Below are positions 32,274 to 46,172 of a stretch of DNA of 64,000 nt, in pieces. This DNA is from Myxococcota bacterium (GTDB taxonomy: Bacteria; Myxococcota_A; Bradymonadia; UBA7976; UBA1532). The translations under genes were made by a program, and so were the position numbers. Within the stretch, counting starts at the first letter, position 1, and each line of letters opens with the position of its first letter. Under the pieces are notes generated by a model. The model searched no databases. It was not told the origin of the DNA and saw only the letters and a list, made by a program, of their open reading frames with translations. The DNA lies in the NCBI GenBank assembly GCA_036337435.1, contig JAYZEG010000062.1, positions 1 to 64,000 of the forward strand, in the 5' to 3' direction.

Positions 32274-33605
32274 TCAGATGGGCTCAGCCACGAGGTCATA
32301 ATCGGTTGATTGTGTGACAACTGCGCGTACGATTTGGCCGGGCTTTACTTGGTCGGACGAACCCAGATATGTGATGCCATCGATTTCAGGCGCTTGAAAT
32401 TGAGTTCGGCCAATCCAAACAAGCTCAGATTCATCGCTGCGCTTTTCAACCAGGACGTCTACCTTACGACCGACCATACTCTGATTGTGCTCGCGTGCGA
32501 TGGAGCGCTGTTCAAACATGAGACGGTCGAGTCGTGTTGCTTTTGTATTTTCGTCGAGTTGTTGGCTCAGTTCATATGAGGGGGTGCCCTCTTCACGGCT
32601 GTATGCAAAGGCACCAAGACGCTCAAACTTGGATTCTTTGATAAACTCCAACAGTTCTTCAAAATCCTGGTCGGTCTCACCCGGATAGCCGACAAGCATT
32701 GTGGTTCGCATACAGATGTTTGGAATGGCCTCTCTAAGCTCACTGACTCGCTTTCGGATCGCGTCACCCCGAGTACCTCGCTTCATGCCCTTCAAGACCG
32801 AATCAGAGATATGCTGCAAGGGCATATCAAGGTACGGGACAATTTTTTCCTCGGTTGCCATTAACTCGACCAAGCCCTTTGGAAATGACCGCGGATACGC
32901 GTACATCAAACGGATCCAGCGTATCCCATCGACTTTGACCAGTTCTCGCAGCAGGTGAGTCAGGTTTTGTCGCGGCTTCAGGTCATAACCCCACGCAGTA
33001 AGGTCTTGAGCGATGAGATTGAACTCGACGACGCCTTGTTCGGCTAATTGGGTTGCTTCTCGGACGACTGAGTCAATATGTCTGCTCCTCTGCGGGCCAC
33101 GCAACGTCGGAATGATACAGAATGCGCACGTATTAGAGCAGCCCTCTGCCACTTTAAGATAGGCGGTATGCCCACCCATCGAGTTGTATCGTGGCGCATC
33201 CCAATTGAAATCCCGGCGATCGGGATCGCCTACGGAGACTCGGCCCCCTGTTCGTCCGTCGAGTATTTCCGTGACGAGAGTCAGATCATTCGTTCCCACG
33301 AAGTGATCGACCTCAGGCATCTCTGACGCAAGTTCCTCCGGGTATCGCTGAGCGAGACAGCCAGTCACAACCAATTTTTCGATTTGGCCTTCGTCTTTTC
33401 GTTGCGCCATTTCCAGTATCGTTTCGATACTTTCCACTTTGGCATCTTCAACAAAAGCACAGGTGTTGACCACGACGATATCGGCATCATCGGCACTGGG
33501 CGTGAGTGAGCAGCCTTCATCGGACAGGCCGGCCAGCATAGTTTCTGTGTCGACCCGATTCTTGGGACACCCCAGGGAGACAAAATGCACTCGCTTACCA
33601 GTCAC
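32274..33605 (-). CDS. rimO: Ribosomal protein S12 methylthiotransferase
   Basis: SLGCPKNRVD, NTCAF, GCLAQRY, radical-SAM CSNTCAFC, APEIDG TRAM domain; AGGAG RBS. Confidence 0.96.
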   Translation of the reverse strand: MTGKRVHFVSLGCPKNRVDTETMLAGLSDEGCSLTPSADDADIVVVNTCAFVEDAKVESIETILEMAQRKDEGQIEKLVVTGCLAQRYPEELASEMPEVDHFVGTNDLTLVTEILDGRTGGRVSVGDPDRRDFNWDAPRYNSMGGHTAYLKVAEGCSNTCAFCIIPTLRGPQRSRHIDSVVREATQLAEQGVVEFNLIAQDLTAWGYDLKPRQNLTHLLRELVKVDGIRWIRLMYAYPRSFPKGLVELMATEEKIVPYLDMPLQHISDSVLKGMKRGTRGDAIRKRVSELREAIPNICMRTTMLVGYPGETDQDFEELLEFIKESKFERLGAFAYSREEGTPSYELSQQLDENTKATRLDRLMFEQRSIAREHNQSMVGRKVDVLVEKRSDESELVWIGRTQFQAPEIDGITYLGSSDQVKPGQIVRAVVTQSTDYDLVAEPI

Positions 33606-33715
33606 GGTATCACTCCTAGATGCTTTTTTGGTTCTTCAGCACGGATCCAGCAGTACCCGATACAGGGAACGCCGCATATTGTTGGGAAGGTCTGAGCTTA
33701 CTAATTTGGCTAGGG

Positions 33716-33895
33716 TTAGCGAGTTGGTTGCTCGTGACCACACTTATCGCAAAGCCAAAAAATACCACTTGGCTGCGTTTGTCTCACGAATTTTACAGCG
33801 GTCATCGCCACGTTGTTACAACCAGCCTGAGGGCATATCTTCGTTTTACCAGCATCCCGGCCACGGCCGGCAATCTTCGCGGGTCTAGTCCCCAT
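33716..33895 (-). CDS. 59-aa basic zinc-ribbon protein (missing from the ORF track)
   Basis: MGTRPAKIAGRGRDAGKTKICPQAGCNNVAMTAVKFVRQTQPSGIFWLCDKCGHEQPTR*; AGGAGA RBS and a dedicated promoter. Confidence 0.82.
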   Translation of the reverse strand: MGTRPAKIAGRGRDAGKTKICPQAGCNNVAMTAVKFVRQTQPSGIFWLCDKCGHEQPTR

Positions 33896-33957
33896 TGTCG
33901 TCTCCTGTTGTCAGTCTCCATCGGACGGTACGTCACGCATGCCGCCACGGGCGTGGC

Positions 33958-33986
33958 ACCCTATCCGACCAAAGTCTAATTGTCAA
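33958..33986 (-). promoter_or_regulatory. sigma70 promoter for the Zn-ribbon gene and rimO
   Basis: TTGACA-N17-TAGGGT on the - strand. Confidence 0.7.
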
Positions 33987-34005
33987 CTCTCGTGAGCCAA
34001 GCTCA

Positions 34006-35841
34006 CTAACCTTCATAGTCTTCTAATTCGCCGATCATTGATGGATCATCGAATAGTGCATCCAGCATCGGTTCACATGGGGTGCCCATGAGCATCTCCC
34101 TCAATCGCCATTTAACCGCGTTTTCGATGCTCTCAGCGGTATTTAATTCTAAGATCTCATTGACCAAACTTTCGCATTCGGCCACCGACATGTTGCGGAC
34201 CATCGCCTTGATCAATGGAATACTTGTCGCGTTCATAGACAGATTTTTGAGTCCCAATCCAATGACTATGGGCAAACAAAGTGGGTCGCCAGCCATCTCT
34301 CCACACATAGACACGTCAATACAGGCACCGCGAGCTGCGCCAACGATGATGCTGATCAAACTCAGCATAGCCGGGTGCATGGGGGCGTAGAGCCTAGCAA
34401 CATGCGGATTCCCGCGGTCAACGGCCAAGGTATACTGAACAAGGTCATTGGTGCCAATCGAGAAAAAGTCAACCTCACGCGCGAGATGCTGTGCAATCAA
34501 GGCTGCTGATGGAACCTCGATCATGATTCCAAAAGGAATGTCGTTGGCAATCGGTACACCCTCGGCTTCGAGTTCTCGACGACATTGCCGAAAAATCGAT
34601 TTGATTGCGCGGACCTCGTCTAGCCGGGATATGAGTGGCACCATGACCCTCAATTCTCCATGGATACTCGCCCTGAGCAGTGCGCGGGCTTGGACTCTGA
34701 AGATATCGGGATGCATCAGGCAGAAACGAACTGCCCTCAGCCCCATTACCGGGTTGTCTTCTGATTCAACGCGGATGAAGTCGGCCAGTTTATCGCCACC
34801 AAGATCGAGCGTTCGTATCGTTGCATGACCGGGCAAAGCCTTTTCCACAACCTCCCGATAACATGCATACTGTTCATCCTCGCTCGGCAGACTGGATCGG
34901 TTCATGTACAAGAACTCGGTTCGGTAAAGCCCAACGCCTTCCGCTCCATGTTCAATGACGATGTTTGTCTCGGTTGGCAGTTCTATATTTCCATTGATTA
35001 GAATCCGATGGCCATCTTTGGTCTGCGCGAAGCCCTGTTTAACCGCGTTTAACTTTGCTTTTTCAACCTCATAAGTCGCTTGACGGTCTCGATAGCGTTT
35101 CAGTTCTTTCGGGGCCGGATTGATATGGACACGCCCATTGGAGCCATCGACGACCAACAGGTCGCCCGTGCCGACATGTTCTGTCAGCTCGTCGATTGCG
35201 ATGACTGCAGGGAGTTCTAGAGAACGGGCCATAATTGCCGTATGACTTGTACGTCCACCGACTTCGGTCACAAAACCAAGCACTGATGAATTAAGCATTT
35301 GAGCGGTATCTGCGGGTGACAAGTCGTGCGCGACAACAATGCTATCGGGTTTGATATTGGCCAAGGTTGGCTCATCTTTACCCAGAAGGTTTCGTAGAAG
35401 CCGGTCTGCAACAAATCCGATGTCAGCGCGCCTCTCTTTAAAATATTCGTCGTCAATATTATCGAACACCTTTTTGATGCCTCGAACAACTTTCTGCAAC
35501 GCCCATTCTGCGTTTAAAGATTGTTCTCGAATCAGCTGCTCAGTGCCCGTGACGAGCATATCATCTCGTAGCATCATTGTATGGGCTTCCAAGATGAGGT
35601 CGTGTTCTTGGCCCTGACTTTTGAATCGAGCTTTGAGAAATTTGAGCTGCTTCTCTGACAACGCGATCGCATCCTGGAATCGGTCAATTTCTGAATCGAT
35701 CTCAGCTTGTTCGACATGGCGGTGGGGCACTTTTATCTTCTTACGATCCACAAAGTGCGCACGTCCTATCGCATAGCCTGGAGAAACTCCAAGGCCGACC
35801 AATCGTGTTGGTCGCGGCTTAATGAGGTGACCATCTGTCAC
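34006..35841 (-). CDS. ptsI: PTS enzyme I (PEP-protein phosphotransferase)
   Basis: GGRTSHTAIMAR phospho-His, GVGLYRTEF, FSIGTNDLVQY, MCGEMAGD. Confidence 0.96.
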   Translation of the reverse strand: MTDGHLIKPRPTRLVGLGVSPGYAIGRAHFVDRKKIKVPHRHVEQAEIDSEIDRFQDAIALSEKQLKFLKARFKSQGQEHDLILEAHTMMLRDDMLVTGTEQLIREQSLNAEWALQKVVRGIKKVFDNIDDEYFKERRADIGFVADRLLRNLLGKDEPTLANIKPDSIVVAHDLSPADTAQMLNSSVLGFVTEVGGRTSHTAIMARSLELPAVIAIDELTEHVGTGDLLVVDGSNGRVHINPAPKELKRYRDRQATYEVEKAKLNAVKQGFAQTKDGHRILINGNIELPTETNIVIEHGAEGVGLYRTEFLYMNRSSLPSEDEQYACYREVVEKALPGHATIRTLDLGGDKLADFIRVESEDNPVMGLRAVRFCLMHPDIFRVQARALLRASIHGELRVMVPLISRLDEVRAIKSIFRQCRRELEAEGVPIANDIPFGIMIEVPSAALIAQHLAREVDFFSIGTNDLVQYTLAVDRGNPHVARLYAPMHPAMLSLISIIVGAARGACIDVSMCGEMAGDPLCLPIVIGLGLKNLSMNATSIPLIKAMVRNMSVAECESLVNEILELNTAESIENAVKWRLREMLMGTPCEPMLDALFDDPSMIGELEDYEG

Positions 35842-36113
35842 TCTTCTTCCCCAAAACGGCTGTCAATGCACTGCTCGATCGCGTCGGCAGCAGCGGTTGC
35901 ATCTTCTCCGCTGCATTTAACTCTCACCATTGAGCCCAGGCCCGCAGCGAGTGTCATCAGGCCCAGAATAGACTTCGCATCGACTGTAAAGTTACCCTTC
36001 TCCATCTTGATATCGCAGGCGAATTGACTCGTCACTCGGACCAGCGCCGCGGCCGCACGTGCATGAAGCCCCAACTTATTTACAATTCGTATCTCTCTGA
36101 TGACTTCTGTCAT
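35838..36113 (-). CDS. ptsH: Phosphocarrier HPr
   Basis: NKLGLHARAA (His15) and DAKSILGL (Ser46). Confidence 0.96.
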   Translation of the reverse strand: MTEVIREIRIVNKLGLHARAAAALVRVTSQFACDIKMEKGNFTVDAKSILGLMTLAAGLGSMVRVKCSGEDATAAADAIEQCIDSRFGEEE

Positions 36114-36126
36114 AGGTATACCACCT

Positions 36127-36924
36127 TCACATTATGGGGAATGCTGAATTGAGAAACATGACCAACGATGCTGTGCCAAAAGCAGCCAAGTAAAGGAGCG
36201 AAACCATGGATATGCTTCGTTTTAGACCCAGCAAAAAGATCAGCATCATTGAAAAGAGCAGGAATGGCTCAACGCCATCGGCCAGCCTGAATGGCGAATT
36301 CATTGCGCGATCTGCAAAGATCGCAGCGATCGCACCTAAAAATAGAGCCGCCAAGTAGTGCGTTCGATCTGCAAATTTGACCAGTGCAAGTTTATGAATT
36401 CGTTCGCAAATTTGTTCACCATCTCGATACCCATAAAAAAGGCCAAAGGTGCGCAATCCAAGGTGACAAAGGTTAAACAAAATCAAAAAACCAATGGGAG
36501 CCCAGAGGATGCCGCTGAGTACCCCCATAACGGCCCATGCCGCGGCGAAGGGCCGCAAACTTGCCCAAAAAAAACTATCCCCGATCGCAGCCATTGGACC
36601 CATCATATAGCGTTTAAAATTGGAGACATCGTCGGGTTGGCGAGTGCCATTGGCGATCTCTTCTTCAATGCGGATAGACGCGCCGATCAATGCGCCGGAC
36701 ATGTACGGATGTGTATTGAAAAATTGAAGGTGACGCTGCAAAGCTTGGTTGAGGTCCTCGCCAGAGTATAGTTTTCTCAGTGCAGGGGAGATGCAGAAAC
36801 AGAGTCCAACATTTTGCATCCGTTCGAAATTGGACGCTGCTTGGATGAAAAAACTTCGCCAAAGGACCCGTAAGAGAACCCATTTGCTGATGGCCCCCCG
36901 TGCGTTTTTGGAACTCGCTATCAT
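36127..36924 (-). CDS. manZ: PTS mannose/fructose/sorbose family EIID
   Basis: NFERMQNVG, FFNTHPY, MGPMAAIGDSFFW; ATGA overlap with the EIIC stop. Confidence 0.9.
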   Translation of the reverse strand: MIASSKNARGAISKWVLLRVLWRSFFIQAASNFERMQNVGLCFCISPALRKLYSGEDLNQALQRHLQFFNTHPYMSGALIGASIRIEEEIANGTRQPDDVSNFKRYMMGPMAAIGDSFFWASLRPFAAAWAVMGVLSGILWAPIGFLILFNLCHLGLRTFGLFYGYRDGEQICERIHKLALVKFADRTHYLAALFLGAIAAIFADRAMNSPFRLADGVEPFLLFSMMLIFLLGLKRSISMVSLLYLAAFGTASLVMFLNSAFPIM

Positions 36925-37631
36925 GCCGAGTACCCTTGGGTCAAAATGGTGGCTACGACCGCAAAGGTTACAGATGCGAGTACGATACCGCGCCGATGAC
37001 GAAGCATTGAAAGTGCCACAGCAACGCCGAGAGATGGGATTAAATAGAGGCCAATCACACCAAGCACGTCCGTCCAATTGGACGTCAGCACACTCTGTAA
37101 TCGTGTTAAAAGGTAGAGCATAGATGCAGTAAAGACTGCTGTGGCCGTCGAATTGGCAAAAAATGTTCGAATCAGAGCGAGAAAGATAAGGAAAGCGATT
37201 TGCCTAGTCTCTCCGCTTCGGACAGCATCATCCGCCTTTGTTGCGAGTCCCAGATTCAGATGGTCGAGTTTGATATCCAGCCACTGGCCGGCAATACAGA
37301 TGGGTGCCCCAAGTAAGATGGCTAAACACCAAACTGCTGGATCAATTTCGCCGACGTGACGTCCGTATAGAAAGACCGCGCCGGCGATGTTAACCGACGC
37401 AAGCGTATCGTTCCTGGGTACGTTTGACCCAAAGAGGACGCAAGACATCCACAAAAGCTGGAGGTATGCACCCAACATCACGCCCAGAGAAGATTCGTTA
37501 AACATCCAGCCGAGCAAAGAGACCGCGACGAGTGGCTGTGATGCCATAAATTGAAATGCAGCCCTTCGGTCCAGGCTCAAGAGTCCGCTAACGCCAGCGA
37601 CAAGGGCCAGGTCGAGCGAAAAGTCGATCAC
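36921..37631 (-). CDS. manY: PTS mannose family EIIC
   Basis: LDRRAAFQFMASQPLV, GVMLGAYLQLLW, multiple TM segments; lies between EIIB and EIID. Confidence 0.85.
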   Translation of the reverse strand: MIDFSLDLALVAGVSGLLSLDRRAAFQFMASQPLVAVSLLGWMFNESSLGVMLGAYLQLLWMSCVLFGSNVPRNDTLASVNIAGAVFLYGRHVGEIDPAVWCLAILLGAPICIAGQWLDIKLDHLNLGLATKADDAVRSGETRQIAFLIFLALIRTFFANSTATAVFTASMLYLLTRLQSVLTSNWTDVLGVIGLYLIPSLGVAVALSMLRHRRGIVLASVTFAVVATILTQGYSA

Positions 37632-38114
37632 CTATTGGGCCTCAAGAACGCGTCTGAGGTCCGTCGGTGTTTCACTTGGAAGTGTTTGGATATTAATCCG
37701 TAATCCACGACTCAGGAGCGATTTCAACTCGGTCTGCTCATTCTCGTCTAAATAGACCGCATTGGTAATTTGAGCCTTACCTGCTGCATGGTGAATATTG
37801 CCAATATTGAGTTGCGGAAATGGATGGCCTGCTTCGAACAAGGCCTGTGCATCTGATACGGATTCCAGCAATACCAAGATTGATTCTGTTGAATTTCGGT
37901 TGTCATTGAGAAAGCGCGCAGCGTCTTTAATGGACAGTGCAGTAAACCCATGTTCAGCTGGGATAGCCATTCTGAACATGGTCATTTGCAAGGCGTTTTT
38001 TGGAACCGCGTCATTGGCAATCACAAAATGACGAACTCTCAAATGCGGCATCCAAGTCGAGATAATTTGACCGTGGACTAATCGATTATCTATCCGGTAA
38101 AAAATGCTCATCAA
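37632..38114 (-). CDS. PTS mannose family EIIB
   Basis: RIDNRLVHGQI and LNIGN motifs. Confidence 0.92.
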   Translation of the reverse strand: MMSIFYRIDNRLVHGQIISTWMPHLRVRHFVIANDAVPKNALQMTMFRMAIPAEHGFTALSIKDAARFLNDNRNSTESILVLLESVSDAQALFEAGHPFPQLNIGNIHHAAGKAQITNAVYLDENEQTELKSLLSRGLRINIQTLPSETPTDLRRVLEAQ

Positions 38115-38515
38115 GTATTTCCGGATGCTCGCATCATCGCGCCTGCAACCAGGATGTTATCGCGCCCATGAGATTGAATTAATTTCGCCACATCGCTCAG
38201 CGGTTTGTCTCGACAGGTAAAGAGTTTGAGCAGCATTGGTAAGTTGACACCGGTCACAACCTCAATGTCTTGGCTGAGCAGTGACAAGCTGACGTTAGAT
38301 GGGGTGCCGCCAAACATGTCACATAGGACGATTGTGCCGGAACCGCGTTCCACGACCTTTATTGCCTCGGTGAGTTCATCGACAATTTTTTCGCCGCTGT
38401 CGCCGGTTTGAACAGTCACCGATGCGCTGTTCTCAAAAGTGCCGACAATCATTGTTGCCGCATCCAACAGAGCCGGTGCTAAATTCGAATGCGTACAAAT
38501 CACAACCCCAATCAT
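38111..38515 (-). CDS. PTS mannose family EIIA
   Basis: IGVVICTH, DMFGGTPSN, GVNLPML. Confidence 0.93.
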   Translation of the reverse strand: MIGVVICTHSNLAPALLDAATMIVGTFENSASVTVQTGDSGEKIVDELTEAIKVVERGSGTIVLCDMFGGTPSNVSLSLLSQDIEVVTGVNLPMLLKLFTCRDKPLSDVAKLIQSHGRDNILVAGAMMRASGNT

Positions 38516-39399
38516 GATGACTCCTTTGACACGTCGCGATGCCGAATCTTCGGATCACGTCCACCAAATCGCAAATGTGCAGCAATCCGCTCGGTCAAAG
38601 CGACCGAGCGGTGCTTGCCACCCGTACATCCAATCGCGATGGTCAGATGGCTCTTTCCCTCGTTTTCGTAAGCAGGAAGCGTCATGTCAACTAATCCCAG
38701 AAAATGCTCTAAGAACTGTTCGGTCTCTGGTCGCTCATAAACATAATCCTGAACGGGCTTATCGAGCCCGGTCTGCGGTCGTAAGGTCTCTACAAAGTGG
38801 GGATTTGGCAAAAAGCGAACATCCCAAACAACATCGGCCTCGCTAGGAACGCCGTATCGAAACCCGAAGCTCATCAATGAAACAAAGAGATCTCTGGGCT
38901 GACCGCCTGTCGCAAATGACTGAATCAGTCTTTTGCATTCGTGTACGTTCAAATCCGACGAATCAAGAATCCTCGATGCCCGCTCCCTGATGGGGTGCAT
39001 AATGAGCCGCTCCGTTTGAATTGCTTCCGCAATTGGGAGTCCATAACGACCCAATGGATGAGGCCTTCTGGATACGCTGAAGCGCCGGAGTAGGACGTCA
39101 TCACTCGCCTCCAAATAAACGATCTCAATATTTACATCTTCTTTTCGAAGGTCGTTTAGTATTTGGAGAGACCCTTCGACATCTTCGACGTTTCGGGCAT
39201 CTAAGCCGATTGCAAGCCGGTCGAATTTGTCACTTCCACGCGCCAGGTCTATCAACTTCGGGAGGAGTGGCGGTGGTAGGTTATCGACACAGAAAAAGCC
39301 GAGGTCTTCGAGAGCGTGACTCGCAGTTGAAATACCCGACCCACTTAATCCTGTGATCACCATCAGCCGTAGATGGGCGGTTTTTGTTTCGTCACTCAT
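38512..39399 (-). CDS. rapZ: RNase adapter RapZ (YhbJ/YvcJ) P-loop protein
   Basis: ITGLSGSG, FCVDNLPP, SFGFRYG, DVRFLPNPHF, GCTGGKHRSV. Confidence 0.95.
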   Translation of the reverse strand: MSDETKTAHLRLMVITGLSGSGISTASHALEDLGFFCVDNLPPPLLPKLIDLARGSDKFDRLAIGLDARNVEDVEGSLQILNDLRKEDVNIEIVYLEASDDVLLRRFSVSRRPHPLGRYGLPIAEAIQTERLIMHPIRERASRILDSSDLNVHECKRLIQSFATGGQPRDLFVSLMSFGFRYGVPSEADVVWDVRFLPNPHFVETLRPQTGLDKPVQDYVYERPETEQFLEHFLGLVDMTLPAYENEGKSHLTIAIGCTGGKHRSVALTERIAAHLRFGGRDPKIRHRDVSKESS

Positions 39400-40384
39400 C
39401 GGGTTCCTCTGATGCCATAGACGGGGGATCGGTCCAATTTTCTTCAGCTTGCTCGATGTGCTCGCTCAGCTGGAGGGCGAATGCTTTCGCTGAATGGGTG
39501 CCCTGTTCCTGCAAAAGTCGGTTTCTGGCGGCAACCTCAATAATCAAACTGAGTGACCGTCCAGGCCTCACCGGAAGGCTGATGAACGGCACACCAACCT
39601 CCGAAAACTCAACCCGTTTCTGCTCTAATCCTAATCGATCGACTTCATTCAAATCGTCCCATTCAACGAGTTCGACGGCCAACTCAATACGTTTTCTAGC
39701 TCTCACCGCAGCCACGCCATATAGATCCTTGATATTGATGATACCAAGTCCTCTAATCTCCATGTGATGACGTGTGAGTTTGGGACTATGGCCCACAACA
39801 GTATTGCTGCCTGTTTTTTCGCAAATGACCACATCATCTGCAACCAGGCGATGGCCACGAGAAATTAACTCGAGAGCAATCTCGCTTTTTCCGATCCCGC
39901 TTTTTCCCAGTAAGAGAACACCGACGCCATGCACGTCAACCAAGGCAGCATGGCGAACTTCTCGCGGAGCATACCAAGATGACAAGACTTGATTGAGCTC
40001 ATCGGTCGCAACCGTAGACTCTTGGTCGGTTGCCAGCAAAGCGACACCAAATTCATCACAAACATTGATCATCTCTGGCGGGATGTCCTCACCAGCTGTA
40101 ATGACAATCGCTGGAATTTCTGTCTCACATAAAGTCCGAAATAACTTTGTCCGCTGCTCAGAGTCTTGCTTGGCCAGATAGCTCATTTCGGTGCGACCGA
40201 GCAGTTGAATTCGCGTCCTGACCAAGTTATCGATATGACCGATAAGGGAAATACCGACGCGTTGAACTTTCGGTGTCCCGATGGTTCTTGAAAATCCTCT
40301 CGGACCGCCCGCCATGACCCGAAAGTTTGGCAGCGTAGCTAGTTCACTGATGCTGATCTCGGTCGTTGCTCGTAATTGATTCAT
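39392..40384 (-). CDS. hprK: HPr(Ser) kinase/phosphorylase
   Basis: GKSGIGKSE, GHRLVADD, EIRGLGIIN, PVRPGR. Confidence 0.96.
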   Translation of the reverse strand: MNQLRATTEISISELATLPNFRVMAGGPRGFSRTIGTPKVQRVGISLIGHIDNLVRTRIQLLGRTEMSYLAKQDSEQRTKLFRTLCETEIPAIVITAGEDIPPEMINVCDEFGVALLATDQESTVATDELNQVLSSWYAPREVRHAALVDVHGVGVLLLGKSGIGKSEIALELISRGHRLVADDVVICEKTGSNTVVGHSPKLTRHHMEIRGLGIINIKDLYGVAAVRARKRIELAVELVEWDDLNEVDRLGLEQKRVEFSEVGVPFISLPVRPGRSLSLIIEVAARNRLLQEQGTHSAKAFALQLSEHIEQAEENWTDPPSMASEEPDE

Positions 40385-40393
40385 CGAGAACTT

Positions 40394-40855
40394 TCAAAGT
40401 TTGGCATCTTCGGCCACAACGATCTGGTAAATGGCGTCGGCGTCAGGGGCGGCTAGAAGTTGCTCTCTAAAACCCGGACTTTTGAGCAGTCTCGATAGAC
40501 GCGCCAGAGCTTTCAGGTGGAGGCCTTCCGCTGCTTCTGGGATGAAAAGCGTAAAGAAAAGATGTGTTGGTTGACCGTCTAAACTATGAAAGTCGACACC
40601 CGCCTTGCTTCGCCCAATACAACCAATAATTTTGTCTACAATCTGTGTCCGGCCATGGGGCATGGCCACCCCATTACCGATTCCGGTACTCTGTAGTTTT
40701 TCACGCCGAGTCAGGGTTTCAACGAGCAGGTTTGGGTCTAGATCAGGGTTAATTTTCAGTGCCAGACCCACCAGCTCTCGAATTACGCCCGGCTTACTGG
40801 AGGCACTTAGGTCATCTTCGATGGCGCGGATGTCAAGAAAGTCGGTGATCTGCAT
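40394..40855 (-). CDS. ptsN: PTS EIIA(Ntr)
   Basis: REKLQSTGIGNGVAMPH and HLKALARLSRLL; follows rpoN. Confidence 0.92.
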   Translation of the reverse strand: MQITDFLDIRAIEDDLSASSKPGVIRELVGLALKINPDLDPNLLVETLTRREKLQSTGIGNGVAMPHGRTQIVDKIIGCIGRSKAGVDFHSLDGQPTHLFFTLFIPEAAEGLHLKALARLSRLLKSPGFREQLLAAPDADAIYQIVVAEDAKL

Positions 40856-40895
40856 GTTGCGATTGGTCCTTCACCATTCATCTGAATGCGGTTGG

Positions 40896-42383
40896 TTAAA
40901 ACAAGCGCTTTCGTTTAGAGCTAGGAAGAATATTCATTGCTTCTCGATATTTCGCAACGGTTCTCCTTGCAATCGTGACGCCTTCTTCTTTCAACAGATT
41001 AACGAGTTTTTGGTCAGATAAAGGTTTCTTAGGTGGTTCTGCGGCTACGAGTTGCCGAATTTTACTTTTAACGGCCTCGCTGGCCAGGTCGCCCTGCTCA
41101 CCCTGAATCGAGGAATTGAAGAAGTATTTGAGTTCGAACATCCCTTGTGGGGTGTGGACGTATTTGTTTGTCGTGACTCTGCTGACGGTGGATTCGTGCA
41201 TACCGATGTCGTCGGCGACATCCTTGAGGATCAGCGGCTTGAGACGCTCCACGCCCAAATCGAAGAAGTCCCGCTGAAACTTAATGATGCTCTCGGTCAC
41301 TTTAACAATGGTTTTCTGTCGCTGATCGATGCTGCGAATCAACCAGGCTGCCGAGTTCAGCTTTTCAGTGACATACTTCTTTGTCTCAGACGAATCTGCG
41401 CCGCGTAATGCATTTCGATAGAATTTGGAGATTCGGAGCCGGGGCATACCATCATCGTTAAGAACGGTTTTATAACCGCCGTTTTCTTCGTCTTTTCGGA
41501 TATAGATATCCGGTGTGATATATCGAGTTGTCTCCGTGGAAAATGGACGGCCTGGTCTTGGTTCAAGCTGGCAAATTAACTTGGCTGCTTCAATGACCTC
41601 ATCGAGCTCGATGCCCATCGTTCGGGCGATCACCTGGTAATTTTTCTTTTCCAGGTTGTCCATGTGGTCACTGATGACGTCTTCTACGATGGCACCAAGT
41701 TCCAGCAATCGCGCCTGAATCAGCAGACACTCGCCCAAGTCACGGGCACCGACACCGGGCGGATCGAAACCTTGGAGAAGCTCCAAGACTTCTTCCACAT
41801 ATTCGAAATCGTTTCCCGTCTCGTGGCAGACCATGGAAATGATAGCGTCGCTTGAAATTGCGTCGCCATCTTCGTCCCGACCTTTTAAATAACCCTCGTC
41901 ATTAATATTGCCGATGAGGATGATGGCCACACGTTCTTCTTGCTCGGTAAAATCGGATACCTGTAATTGCCACATTAAGTGGTCGAACAGAGTCTCGGTG
42001 CGCGTAAGCGTCGCTTCATAACCGGGCAGATCATCATCGCGTAAGCGCTGCTGCCCCGTGCTGGGCGTTGGTGATGAGTAATTTTCGAAATACGATTCCC
42101 AATCGATATCAGTTCGTTGCTCAGTAATGTTTTCTTCTACTTGGACATCGGCGGTTTGCTCGTTTTTCTCTCTCTTTTCAACATCCTGTGCCGATTCGAC
42201 CCGGGCTTCCGATGCTGTTATCTCGGAGTTTTCCTCCAGCATCGGGTTTTCCATCAACTCATCGCGAACGGCTTCGATGAGGTCCGTACGTGCTAGTTGC
42301 AATAGCTTGATCGCTTGCTGCAGCTGCGGTGTCATCACCAGTTGCTGCTGCATTTTTAGATCAAGTCTGAGGTCAAGTCCCAT
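40896..42383 (-). CDS. rpoN: RNA polymerase sigma-54 factor
   Basis: MTPQLQQAIKLLQL, HESTVSR, RpoN box ARRTVAKYRE. Confidence 0.98.
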   Translation of the reverse strand: MGLDLRLDLKMQQQLVMTPQLQQAIKLLQLARTDLIEAVRDELMENPMLEENSEITASEARVESAQDVEKREKNEQTADVQVEENITEQRTDIDWESYFENYSSPTPSTGQQRLRDDDLPGYEATLTRTETLFDHLMWQLQVSDFTEQEERVAIILIGNINDEGYLKGRDEDGDAISSDAIISMVCHETGNDFEYVEEVLELLQGFDPPGVGARDLGECLLIQARLLELGAIVEDVISDHMDNLEKKNYQVIARTMGIELDEVIEAAKLICQLEPRPGRPFSTETTRYITPDIYIRKDEENGGYKTVLNDDGMPRLRISKFYRNALRGADSSETKKYVTEKLNSAAWLIRSIDQRQKTIVKVTESIIKFQRDFFDLGVERLKPLILKDVADDIGMHESTVSRVTTNKYVHTPQGMFELKYFFNSSIQGEQGDLASEAVKSKIRQLVAAEPPKKPLSDQKLVNLLKEEGVTIARRTVAKYREAMNILPSSKRKRLF

Positions 42384-42439
42384 TGAGCATCCATATTTCA
42401 ATACGTTCGACGAGCCTGACGGCTCAAGTGTACGCTACC

Positions 42440-43165
42440 TCATTTTTTCGCAGTGCCATAGTGTGTACCTAAATAGGTATCCCGAACTCGGATATTTTGT
42501 GCAACTTCGTCCGGGTCGCCACGACAGATGATGTTGCCTTCGTGGAGTATATAGATCTGGTCACAGAGGGCCAGCGATTGAGACACATCATGATCGGTTA
42601 AGAGAACAGCTGTTCCCCTCTTTGCGATCTGTCTCAAATGCATGGACACGTCCTGTACAGCGATTGGATCAAGGGCTGCAAAAGGTTCATCGGCCAAAAG
42701 TACAGTCGGTGTAACTCCGAATCCGCGCGCCAATTCAACCCGCCGTTTCTCCCCGCCGCTCAGATTCGATCCCTTCGCTTGAGCCAATTTTTCAAGACCG
42801 AATCTCTTCATGAGCTCATACCGGCGGTTTTTGCGCTCTGCCTTGGACAAACTCAACAAACCAAAATCAATATTTTCTTCCACGGTAAAGTCGAGTAGCA
42901 CCGACGGCTCTTGTGGTATGTAGGCGAGACCCAGCCGACAACGGCCCCAAAGCGGTCGCTTTTCGACTCGATGGCCCGATAAATTAATCGCTGTATTTCT
43001 CGCTGTTAATTGTCCAGTGAGTAACTTGAAAAGAGTCGTTTTACCGGCCCCATTGGGCCCTAAAACACCAACGATTTGACCTTTGTCCACATCAATGTCG
43101 ATGTGGTTGAGAACCAATCGCCGTCCATATGTGTAGTTTAGGTTTTTTGCTGAGAGTGCAGTCAT
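42440..43165 (-). CDS. lptB: LPS export ABC ATPase LptB
   Basis: GPNGAGKTT, LSGGEKRRVE, DEPFAALDP, TDHDV, YLG; upstream of rpoN. Confidence 0.92.
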   Translation of the reverse strand: MTALSAKNLNYTYGRRLVLNHIDIDVDKGQIVGVLGPNGAGKTTLFKLLTGQLTARNTAINLSGHRVEKRPLWGRCRLGLAYIPQEPSVLLDFTVEENIDFGLLSLSKAERKNRRYELMKRFGLEKLAQAKGSNLSGGEKRRVELARGFGVTPTVLLADEPFAALDPIAVQDVSMHLRQIAKRGTAVLLTDHDVSQSLALCDQIYILHEGNIICRGDPDEVAQNIRVRDTYLGTHYGTAKK

Positions 43166-43617
43166 CTGTTTTGCGGTTGGATTTGCTTTAATTGTTTCAA
43201 ATCAAACACACCCTTTGGTTTATCGACGACGATTCGTTCGCTGCTCAGCCAGATCGAAATACGCTGTCCGACCAGACGGCTTCCGTTCCTGGTCAAGCTT
43301 GGTTGTCCAGTAAGTACTAAGGTTTGTTGGTTTTGGTCGTAGGCCGCTCGTTTGGCTGTTGCCTTCATGTTGCCTTTGTCGACTTTGACATCGCCAATTG
43401 CATTGAGTTCGATCAATTCGCTGTCTTTGTACCGACCGGTCAGTCGTGTGCAAGATAATTTGAGAGACCCGCGGACAACCAATACATTGCCGCTGAATTC
43501 AACCTGTCCACTGCGATGTATGATTTCAACTCGATCGGCACTAATCTGAACTTTTTTCGCCGCATGAGTCGTTGGAGCCACGGGGGTAGACATAGCAATG
43601 ATCAAAAGAAGAAGCAT
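43162..43617 (-). CDS. lptA: LptA/OstA family periplasmic protein
   Basis: Signal peptide, ISAD, FSGNV, LVLTGQP, GQRI beta-jellyroll pattern. Confidence 0.88.
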   Translation of the reverse strand: MLLLLIIAMSTPVAPTTHAAKKVQISADRVEIIHRSGQVEFSGNVLVVRGSLKLSCTRLTGRYKDSELIELNAIGDVKVDKGNMKATAKRAAYDQNQQTLVLTGQPSLTRNGSRLVGQRISIWLSSERIVVDKPKGVFDLKQLKQIQPQNR

Positions 43618-43646
43618 GGCTAGATTGTTATCGGTTTTTCAGTTGG

Positions 43647-46172
<2,526 letters not shown>

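Follow-up and report, generated by a model that had tools for sequence, protein, structure and literature searches.

Does the 400-nucleotide (nt) gap between ptsI and rimO in a genome of the class Bradymonadia hold a gene of its own and, if so, what might its product do? The locus lies in a stretch of 64,000 nt from a Myxococcota bacterium (contig JAYZEG010000062.1, assembly GCA_036337435.1, positions 1 to 64,000), which is called the window throughout. An earlier note on this DNA had proposed that a small open reading frame (ORF), hidden in the gap, encodes a basic zinc-ribbon protein of 59 amino acids (aa), is expressed from its own promoter and leads the transcript of rimO. The gene, here named zr, lies on the minus strand, as do both flanking genes, ptsI (34006-35841) and rimO (32274-33605). 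The former encodes PTS enzyme I, and the product of the latter has UPF0004, radical SAM and TRAM domains. The zr gene is a class-wide housekeeping gene for a small basic protein, and it represents an undescribed family with a fold of a known kind that is almost confined to the class Bradymonadia. The association with rimO is a local arrangement, and other partners and targets must be considered.

The zr gene and its family

The 59-aa sequence quoted in the earlier note is present exactly at positions 33716-33895 (minus strand, stop codon included), beginning with an ATG that is supported by its orthologues. That such a hidden ORF is a real gene is borne out by a conserved open frame, by purifying selection and by its occurrence as a single copy throughout the class. 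At E<=1, a conserved open frame was recovered from 40 of 41 related genomes, and the matches at E<1e-8 range from 98% to about 42% identity. All 20 extracted orthologues start with ATG; 19 begin with MG[TAN][RK]PAK and one with MAAGKKAK. Comparison of substitution rates, a check that the earlier note had named, indicates strong purifying selection: the closest pair differs by 15 synonymous changes and one non-synonymous change, with a ratio of non-synonymous to synonymous rates (dN/dS) of 0.014, and over all 171 pairs the median differences per site are 0.72 for synonymous (pS) and 0.17 for non-synonymous (pN) sites. The window genome carries one copy, the second match listed (E 0.84) having an internal stop. 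The ORF is almost certainly a real gene. Metatranscriptome contigs from the locus are short pieces of low depth (2-4), which may stem from DNA carry-over and cannot rank expression; one run gave pieces over 33681-33850 and 33900-34050, and coverage in three further runs is confined to the inside of rimO.

A search for conservation across the phylum, also named in the earlier note, found the gene to be near-universal in the class and nearly absent elsewhere. With a profile built from 31 diverse members (alignment A2), one copy was detected in 56 of 58 Bradymonadia genomes, the two genomes without a match being 87% complete, and a match was obtained in only two of 243 other Myxococcota genomes, both weak or partial. 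Outside the class, a 54-aa ribbon relative was seen (locus L104, G050:C334, 2995-3159), which lacks the P-A-K arm described below, has a degenerate first knuckle and adjoins a gene for a HAD hydrolase. The 42 loci retrieved from a species-representative collection are labelled mainly as Bradymonadia, Myxococcales, Myxococcota or Deltaproteobacteria, and 41 of them as metagenome-assembled genomes, the exception being a locus labelled as a Bacteroidaceae bacterium. A protein that almost every genome of a class carries as one copy, and that hardly occurs in other lineages of the phylum, usually has a central role.

Larger collections gave members without informative names. A single-sequence search of 1.84 billion representative proteins returned eight matches at E<=0.001, two of which fall outside the family: P0013, which is a type IA topoisomerase, and P0011, a repeat protein of the SpaA type that matches by composition and is not a relative. 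A profile search of a 5.8-billion-protein collection yielded 262 clusters; among the 120 listed, those with a name are called 'hypothetical protein' or bear one of two automatic labels of the Joint Genome Institute (JGI), namely 'ssDNA-binding Zn-finger/Zn-ribbon topoisomerase 1' (several members) and DUF1610 (one member). The nearest clusters in the ESM Atlas are unnamed hypothetical proteins with uninformative scores of 0.91-0.92. Pfam, NCBIfam and PHROGs gave only sub-threshold matches to generic ribbons, with no Pfam or NCBIfam cut-off reached; the Pfam matches are spread over 73 families, and those in PHROGs have no known function. The protein has no characterised family: no curated model recognises it at its cut-off, and a literature search on zinc ribbons and conserved hypothetical proteins of Bradymonadales found nothing on it. 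What is new here is the class-wide family itself, which no curated family or paper found describes. The Bradymonadia are bacterial predators that have been little studied at the molecular level; direct tests are possible because cultured relatives encode an orthologue. NCBI lists clusters P0087 and P0076 as hypothetical proteins from Bradymonas sediminis and Persicimonas caeni.

The protein, which ranges from 57 to 72 aa across members, is formed by two parts. Residues 1-20 (33836-33895, minus strand) form a basic N-terminal arm with the motif [KR]-P-A-K-[IL]-[AS] in alignments A1 and A2, and residues 21-52 (33740-33835, minus strand) form the zinc ribbon, with knuckles C21/C26 and C49/C52 and a hairpin between them. 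Positions A6, K7, R38, G44 and W47 are invariant in A2, the first two in the arm and the others in the hairpin, and P5, A9, C21, P22, M31 and S43 are conserved in at least 90% of the sequences. Conservation is therefore highest in the arm motif and in the hairpin V-R-x3-P-S-G-M-F-W, and lower at the zinc ligands. Most members have the form CPxC...CxxC. The CPQAGC first knuckle (CX4C) read in the earlier note is present in the window but is not a feature of the family: it results from a two-residue insertion limited to the closest relatives, and nearly all other cysteine-bearing members have CPxC at this place. One family has a second knuckle of the form C-x4/5-C together with a C-terminal extension. 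Another family and a few further genomes have lost most or all of the cysteines and have an acidic loop instead; the arm and the R..G..W hairpin are invariant even there. The proposed design of a basic tail joined to a C4 ribbon is supported. In the AlphaFold2 model (mean predicted local distance difference test score, pLDDT, 75.6) three strands are predicted at residues 30-36, 44-48 and 55-57, and the arm is of low confidence, with mean pLDDT values of 60 and 62 in its two blocks of 10 residues.

Promoter and leader of zr

The earlier note had also read a near-consensus promoter and a ribosome-binding site upstream of the gene. On the minus strand, a -35 hexamer TTGACA (33981-33986), kept in pattern upstream of orthologues, is followed after 17 nt by a -10 hexamer TAGGGT (33958-33963; family consensus TAGnnT), then by the GC-rich stretch gccacgccc and, 5 nt before the ATG, by the Shine-Dalgarno sequence AGGAGA (33901-33906). 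The ribosome-binding site is as described, and AGGAG-like motifs precede most orthologue starts. The term near-consensus suits the -35 hexamer and the spacing but not the -10 hexamer, which is identical to TATAAT at only three of six positions; for this reason a scan for consensus promoters did not list the site.

To assess conservation of the promoter, upstream regions of the window's family and order, 29 of them distinct, were anchored on TTGAC. The pattern TTGACN-N17-NANNNT recurs in 27 of these regions, 59-123 nt before the ATG and with an exact TTGACA in 19; 1000 shuffles averaged 0.16, never exceeding 2, and the opposite strand had none. The two exceptions, when read by eye, contain TTGACA-N18-TAGTTT (L039) and TTGATC-N17-TATACT (L017). 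Apart from the closest pair, identity in the sequence around the promoter is no more than about 56-68%, and the anchored consensus retains C residues, or a GC-rich stretch, just after the -10. In the other families no site of the TTGACN-N17-NANNNT type was found within 200 nt upstream of zr. The claim of a promoter belonging to zr itself is hence well founded, and this promoter is very probably a conserved one of the sigma-70 type.

Read-through from ptsI into zr may also occur, since one contig from an RNA library (33900-34050, depth 2, with DNA carry-over possible) covers the promoter region together with the stop codon of ptsI. The leader of zr is less stably folded than its shuffled versions (z 1.57), and Rfam detected no RNA family in 33300-34300. 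A perfect 6-base-pair hairpin, GTGAGC-TTG-GCTCAC (33992-34006, minus strand), takes in the final base of the ptsI stop codon; it is not followed by a U-tract and, by eye, is not kept in the nearest relative.

Candidate roles and gene neighbours

The explanation that best accounts for the whole of these data, offered tentatively, is that zr encodes an undescribed family of nucleic-acid-binding microproteins with ribosomal RNA as preferred target. In this mechanism the N-terminal arm with its invariant P-A-K motif would be unstructured and would be followed by a three-stranded zinc ribbon. The hairpin of the ribbon, with an invariant tryptophan and arginine as in topoisomerase I/TFIIS-type ribbons, would bind single-stranded nucleic acid together with the basic arm. 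If the preferred target is ribosomal RNA, the product would be a lineage-specific ribosomal or ribosome-associated protein, perhaps located near bS18 on the small subunit. These steps differ in strength. By analogy, the ribbon probably binds nucleic acid, and single-stranded nucleic acid would be the likely form, because of the type of ribbon, the invariant tryptophan and arginine of the hairpin and the basic character of the arm. Association with the ribosome is a possibility to be held with more reserve. Its most specific version is doubtful: a class-specific ribosomal protein that has zinc-bound and zinc-free forms, is placed near bS18 on the platform of the small subunit and owes its expression to a strong promoter in which the -10 is followed by GC-rich sequence.

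The ribosome is favoured as the target because a pairing with rpsR outlasts changes in the flanking genes, because the gene is a universal single copy, because zinc-bound and zinc-free forms exist and because the expression signals are strong. The pairing is found in a branch of 40-48% identity that comprises two families by label, in which zr lies directly upstream of rpsR (encoding bS18) on the same strand in all 14 loci (L046-L048 and L050-L060); it recurs in L066. Three measured gaps between the two genes are 26, 35 and 41 nt. The outer flanks vary and include type II secretion genes, a phosphotransferase, an asparagine synthase, metH, dUTPase and infC, the last lying upstream in one locus. 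In each of three genomes checked, no second rpsR exists besides the one paired with zr, and rpsF lies on a different contig. Separation of rpsF and rpsR (on different contigs or 2 Mb apart) was observed in G029, G033, G040, G030 and G035, and in the last of these genomes (L084, G035:C1) the place of zr upstream of rpsR (1740-1988) is taken by rpmG, encoding a cysteine-less bL33 (1495-1650). In many bacteria the position just upstream of rpsR holds ssb or priB. The idea of a small ribosomal or RNA-polymerase-associated protein, raised in the earlier note, gains support that is independent, though circumstantial, from the rpsR pairing, but not from homology to a ribosomal family.

Several observations weigh against a place on the ribosome. 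Neither sequence nor profile searches gave a significant match to a family of ribosomal proteins, eL42 reaching E 0.03 over half of the ribbon, and the ribbon similarities as a whole are below curated thresholds and scattered over the 73 Pfam families already mentioned. There is no vacancy to fill, since bL33, bS21 and bL31 are each present in the five genomes searched. The position next to a ribosomal protein gene is seen in the rpsR branch and in L066, and not in the window genome or other families: the window genome has a normal rpsF-rpsR-rplI operon without zr, followed by dnaB, and in most lineages zr is outside a translation context, being placed after PTS genes, before HEAT-repeat and DUF192 genes, or in no pattern at all. 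In codon usage zr tends towards the set of ribosomal proteins, but not significantly. The score of zr is 0.01, against a background median of -0.021 and a median of 0.03 for the set of ribosomal proteins, with a standard deviation of about 0.03 for windows of 59 codons; a score equal to or above that of zr is reached by 14% of background windows, and the bias of the genome is weak.

Two related candidates were rejected. Replacement of a missing small ribosomal protein or of HPF is unsupported, as HPF too is present in all five genomes, and the idea of a bL33 paralogue is contradicted by a probability of 2.5% over 6 columns in an hhalign comparison of A2 with 30 distinct Myxococcota bL33 sequences. 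As a side observation on the ribosomal genes of the window genome, an ORF read as rpsJ (S10, 84022-84333 of contig C66) is directly followed by one read as rplD (L4, 83388-84008), both judged by their N-terminal sequences, and the only L3 (rplC) match is on a different contig (C24:18200-18457). Were the zr protein ribosomal or ribosome-bound, it would be a lineage-specific component added to the bacterial ribosome, and it would exemplify in nature, beyond the known set, the coexistence of zinc-bound and zinc-free forms.

The best surviving alternative shares the nucleic-acid-binding ribbon and changes its target: the product would be a DNA-binding protein of the nucleoid, of transcription or of replication, which binds single-stranded or distorted DNA, or RNA polymerase, and not the ribosome. 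Such a role, if true, would make it a class-specific nucleoid or transcription factor; it is itself unlikely, yet an association with DNA or RNA polymerase is nearly as likely as one with the ribosome. In its favour, the sole profile match above noise is to the C-terminal ribbon repeat of the type IA topoisomerase P0013, which is the strongest link of zr to any protein (hhalign probability 89%, E 2e-6; phmmer E 1.7e-4 over four stretches). The next-best matches are RPA12/TFS ribbons, and the JGI label of several members names a single-stranded-DNA-binding ribbon. Within the window's family zr ends a cluster that starts with rpoN, and the rpsR-upstream place is the one occupied by ssb or priB in other bacteria. 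On the other side, the acidic hairpin of TFIIS-type ribbons is replaced by RQ(S/T)xPSG in zr, and no DNA-metabolism gene is found among its conserved neighbours.

The topoisomerases of the lineage itself do not strengthen the DNA-binding alternative. Origin of zr from the lineage's own TopA was considered and is unsupported, as no TopA gave a convincing match to the zr profile; the canonical ribbons of the TopA of G029 reached domain scores of only 0.3-0.8 bits (whole-protein E 0.0063). The C-terminus of TopA in the window's genus has no zinc ribbons. In the TopA of that genus (L109, G001:C47) a long cysteine-free C-terminal region with repeated GR[FY]GPY motifs and a basic tail was observed; canonical C4 ribbons are present in the TopA of L108, from a genome of another family.

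A functional tie to the regulatory PTS is improbable. In this alternative zr would encode a partner of HPr, EI, EIIA or RapZ, e.g. a small adaptor set by the phosphorylation state of the PTS. In the window the genes run rpoN, ptsN, hprK, rapZ, those for mannose-class EIIA/B/C/D, HPr, ptsI, zr and rimO, with ptsI closing the cluster and standing as the conserved neighbour upstream of zr. The genes up to ptsI belong to a long co-directional cluster (34006-46126, minus strand) in which pyrG, a lipid A acyltransferase gene, lptA and lptB precede rpoN; hpf is not present between rpoN and ptsN, and an S30AE/HPF match lies on another contig (C24). Neighbours were counted in two sets of loci, of 20 and 42. 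Same-strand ptsI is found upstream of zr in 12 of the 20 and in 19 of the 42, and within the same order a sister family has zr behind rapZ and a gene of the EIIA(Man) type (three loci, with EIIA identified by Pfam in one). Against this, zr has its own promoter, the remaining four families keep zr equally conserved without the link, and synteny within an order can be mere inherited gene order.

Still less probable is a partnership with a class-wide HEAT-repeat protein, into whose solenoid the basic N-terminal peptide would dock, in the way that a nuclear-localisation-type peptide docks into importin. In one whole family and one genome of another, the gene of this protein comes next after zr, in the same direction, in all 18 loci (L065, L068, L073, L074 and L085-L098), and the same arrangement was found in L061; it is in this lineage that zr carries its own C-terminal extension. 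The HEAT-repeat protein is of about 750-860 aa, with C-terminal HEAT repeats and no Pfam match in its N-terminal half; it is encoded in each of the five genomes that were searched from four other families, and in the window genome on another contig (G000:C28:17676-19940). A DUF192 gene follows in 16 of the 18 loci and was not seen in the fetched stretch of the other two; a gene for a BrkB/YihY-type membrane protein is often upstream of zr in the HEAT-linked family. Set against these points are the gap of roughly 100-250 nt between the two genes and the lack of zr-HEAT adjacency in other families. Prediction of a complex between the two proteins from a Bradymonadaceae locus (alignments A3 and A4) gave 0.00 in two runs without controls, which speaks neither for nor against it. 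In the cysteine-less family zr has no consistent neighbour.

The last alternative, that zr is a co-transcribed leader gene of rimO with a functional tie to the modification of uS12, is likewise very improbable and largely refuted as a general feature, since where the two genes adjoin outside the window's genus they are convergent, and in other families they do not adjoin at all. What the earlier note had seen is correct for the window, in which the two genes stand in tandem 110 nt apart, as they do across its genus: the spacer (33606-33715, minus strand) contains no terminator-like element and folds no better than its shuffles (z 0.80). Synteny with rimO as a defining feature, which the note had inferred, did not survive the comparison. 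The two genes adjoin in 13 of the 20 loci and 16 of the 42; rimO is on the same strand as zr in four of the 20, these being of the window's genus, and in three of the 42, and is tail to tail with it in nine of the 20 (nine of the 13 adjacent loci) and 13 of the 42 (13 of the 16). No RNA contig among the low-depth metatranscriptome pieces joins zr to rimO. Comparison of the window (32274-33605) with loci L005-L020 and L024-L062 shows that rimO alone is turned round in the window's genus with respect to the family's other genera; LolA and a sigma-54 activator beyond it are oriented alike in both.

Comparison with known zinc ribbons

The likeness to eS31 suggested in the earlier note did not hold. 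Both eS31 (S27ae) and eL42 (L44e) share with zr a C4 ribbon behind a basic segment, but eS31 chains match at E 0.79, 1.9 and 6.9 over query residues 16-26, 11-27 and 13-26 only, i.e. 11-17 residues around the first knuckle, which is not significant, and no S27-type Pfam family was found at E<=10. For eL42 there is a local stretch resembling VRxxRPxGMxW (E 0.029-0.1); the match covers half of the ribbon, the second knuckle of eL42 lies far downstream and the similarity is not significant. HVO_2753/DUF1610 proteins (PF07754) are, like zr, stand-alone proteins of about 60 aa with CPxC knuckles, and one zr member is so labelled by JGI. The domain is matched by four of the 31 members, however, with a best E of 0.0017 that is below threshold and a PDB match at E 5.8. 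HVO_2753 has four C(P)XCG motifs that form two pockets, whereas zr has two knuckles only.

A weak resemblance links zr to the ribbons of TFIIS, archaeal TFS and the RNA polymerase subunits RPA12, RPB9 and RPC10, in which two knuckles about 22-24 residues apart surround a three-stranded sheet, as they do in zr. Structure prediction followed by Foldseek, suggested in the earlier note, gave a three-stranded ribbon with TFIIS-type proteins at the top (RPA12, RPB9, TFIIS and RPC10), although no match in PDB reached E<=0.001. Among PDB sequences the profile matched RPA12 best (E 0.002 and 0.0077), followed by eL42 (0.029) and RPB9/TFS (0.03). The protein remains below the curated cut-offs of these families: TIGR01384 (TFS) scored 18.4 bits (E 0.0027) against a cut-off of 64.75 bits, and PF01096 was matched by 12 of the 31 members with a best E of 0.0047. 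The acidic hairpin of TFIIS-type ribbons carries a catalytic D-E pair; the tip RSADEG of RPA12 aligns with RQSRPSG of zr, and the A2 consensus is without the acidic pair, a basic or neutral hairpin standing in its place. The zr protein further differs in being bacterial and stand-alone, with a basic N-terminal arm.

Type IA topoisomerases carry C-terminal zinc ribbons that bind single-stranded DNA. The ribbon of P0013 has SGxFWxC in common with zr, and its CPxPxC knuckles resemble the CX4C knuckle of the window. On the other hand, zr is a stand-alone protein of 57-72 aa and not a repeat in an enzyme of 800 aa, and the corresponding family, PF01396, is matched by only five of the 31 members (best E 0.027), which falls short of membership. 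We conclude from these comparisons that zr carries a zinc ribbon of classical type, of the sort that binds nucleic acid, and belongs to no defined family.

The zinc-ribbon ribosomal proteins bL33, bL31, bL32, bL36, uS14 and bS18, and small ribosomal proteins specific to one lineage, differ from the zr protein in that the latter has no detectable homology to them and is encoded mostly outside translation operons. One account (PMC5912738) describes a mycobacterial operon of alternative ribosomal proteins. The likeness to the zinc-ribbon ribosomal proteins extends to size, basicity and the combination of a disordered arm with a ribbon. These proteins reportedly split into cysteine-bearing and cysteine-less forms, a division that Makarova et al. 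are said to have described in 2001, and zr also has both forms across its lineages and is, in one lineage, tightly paired with rpsR.

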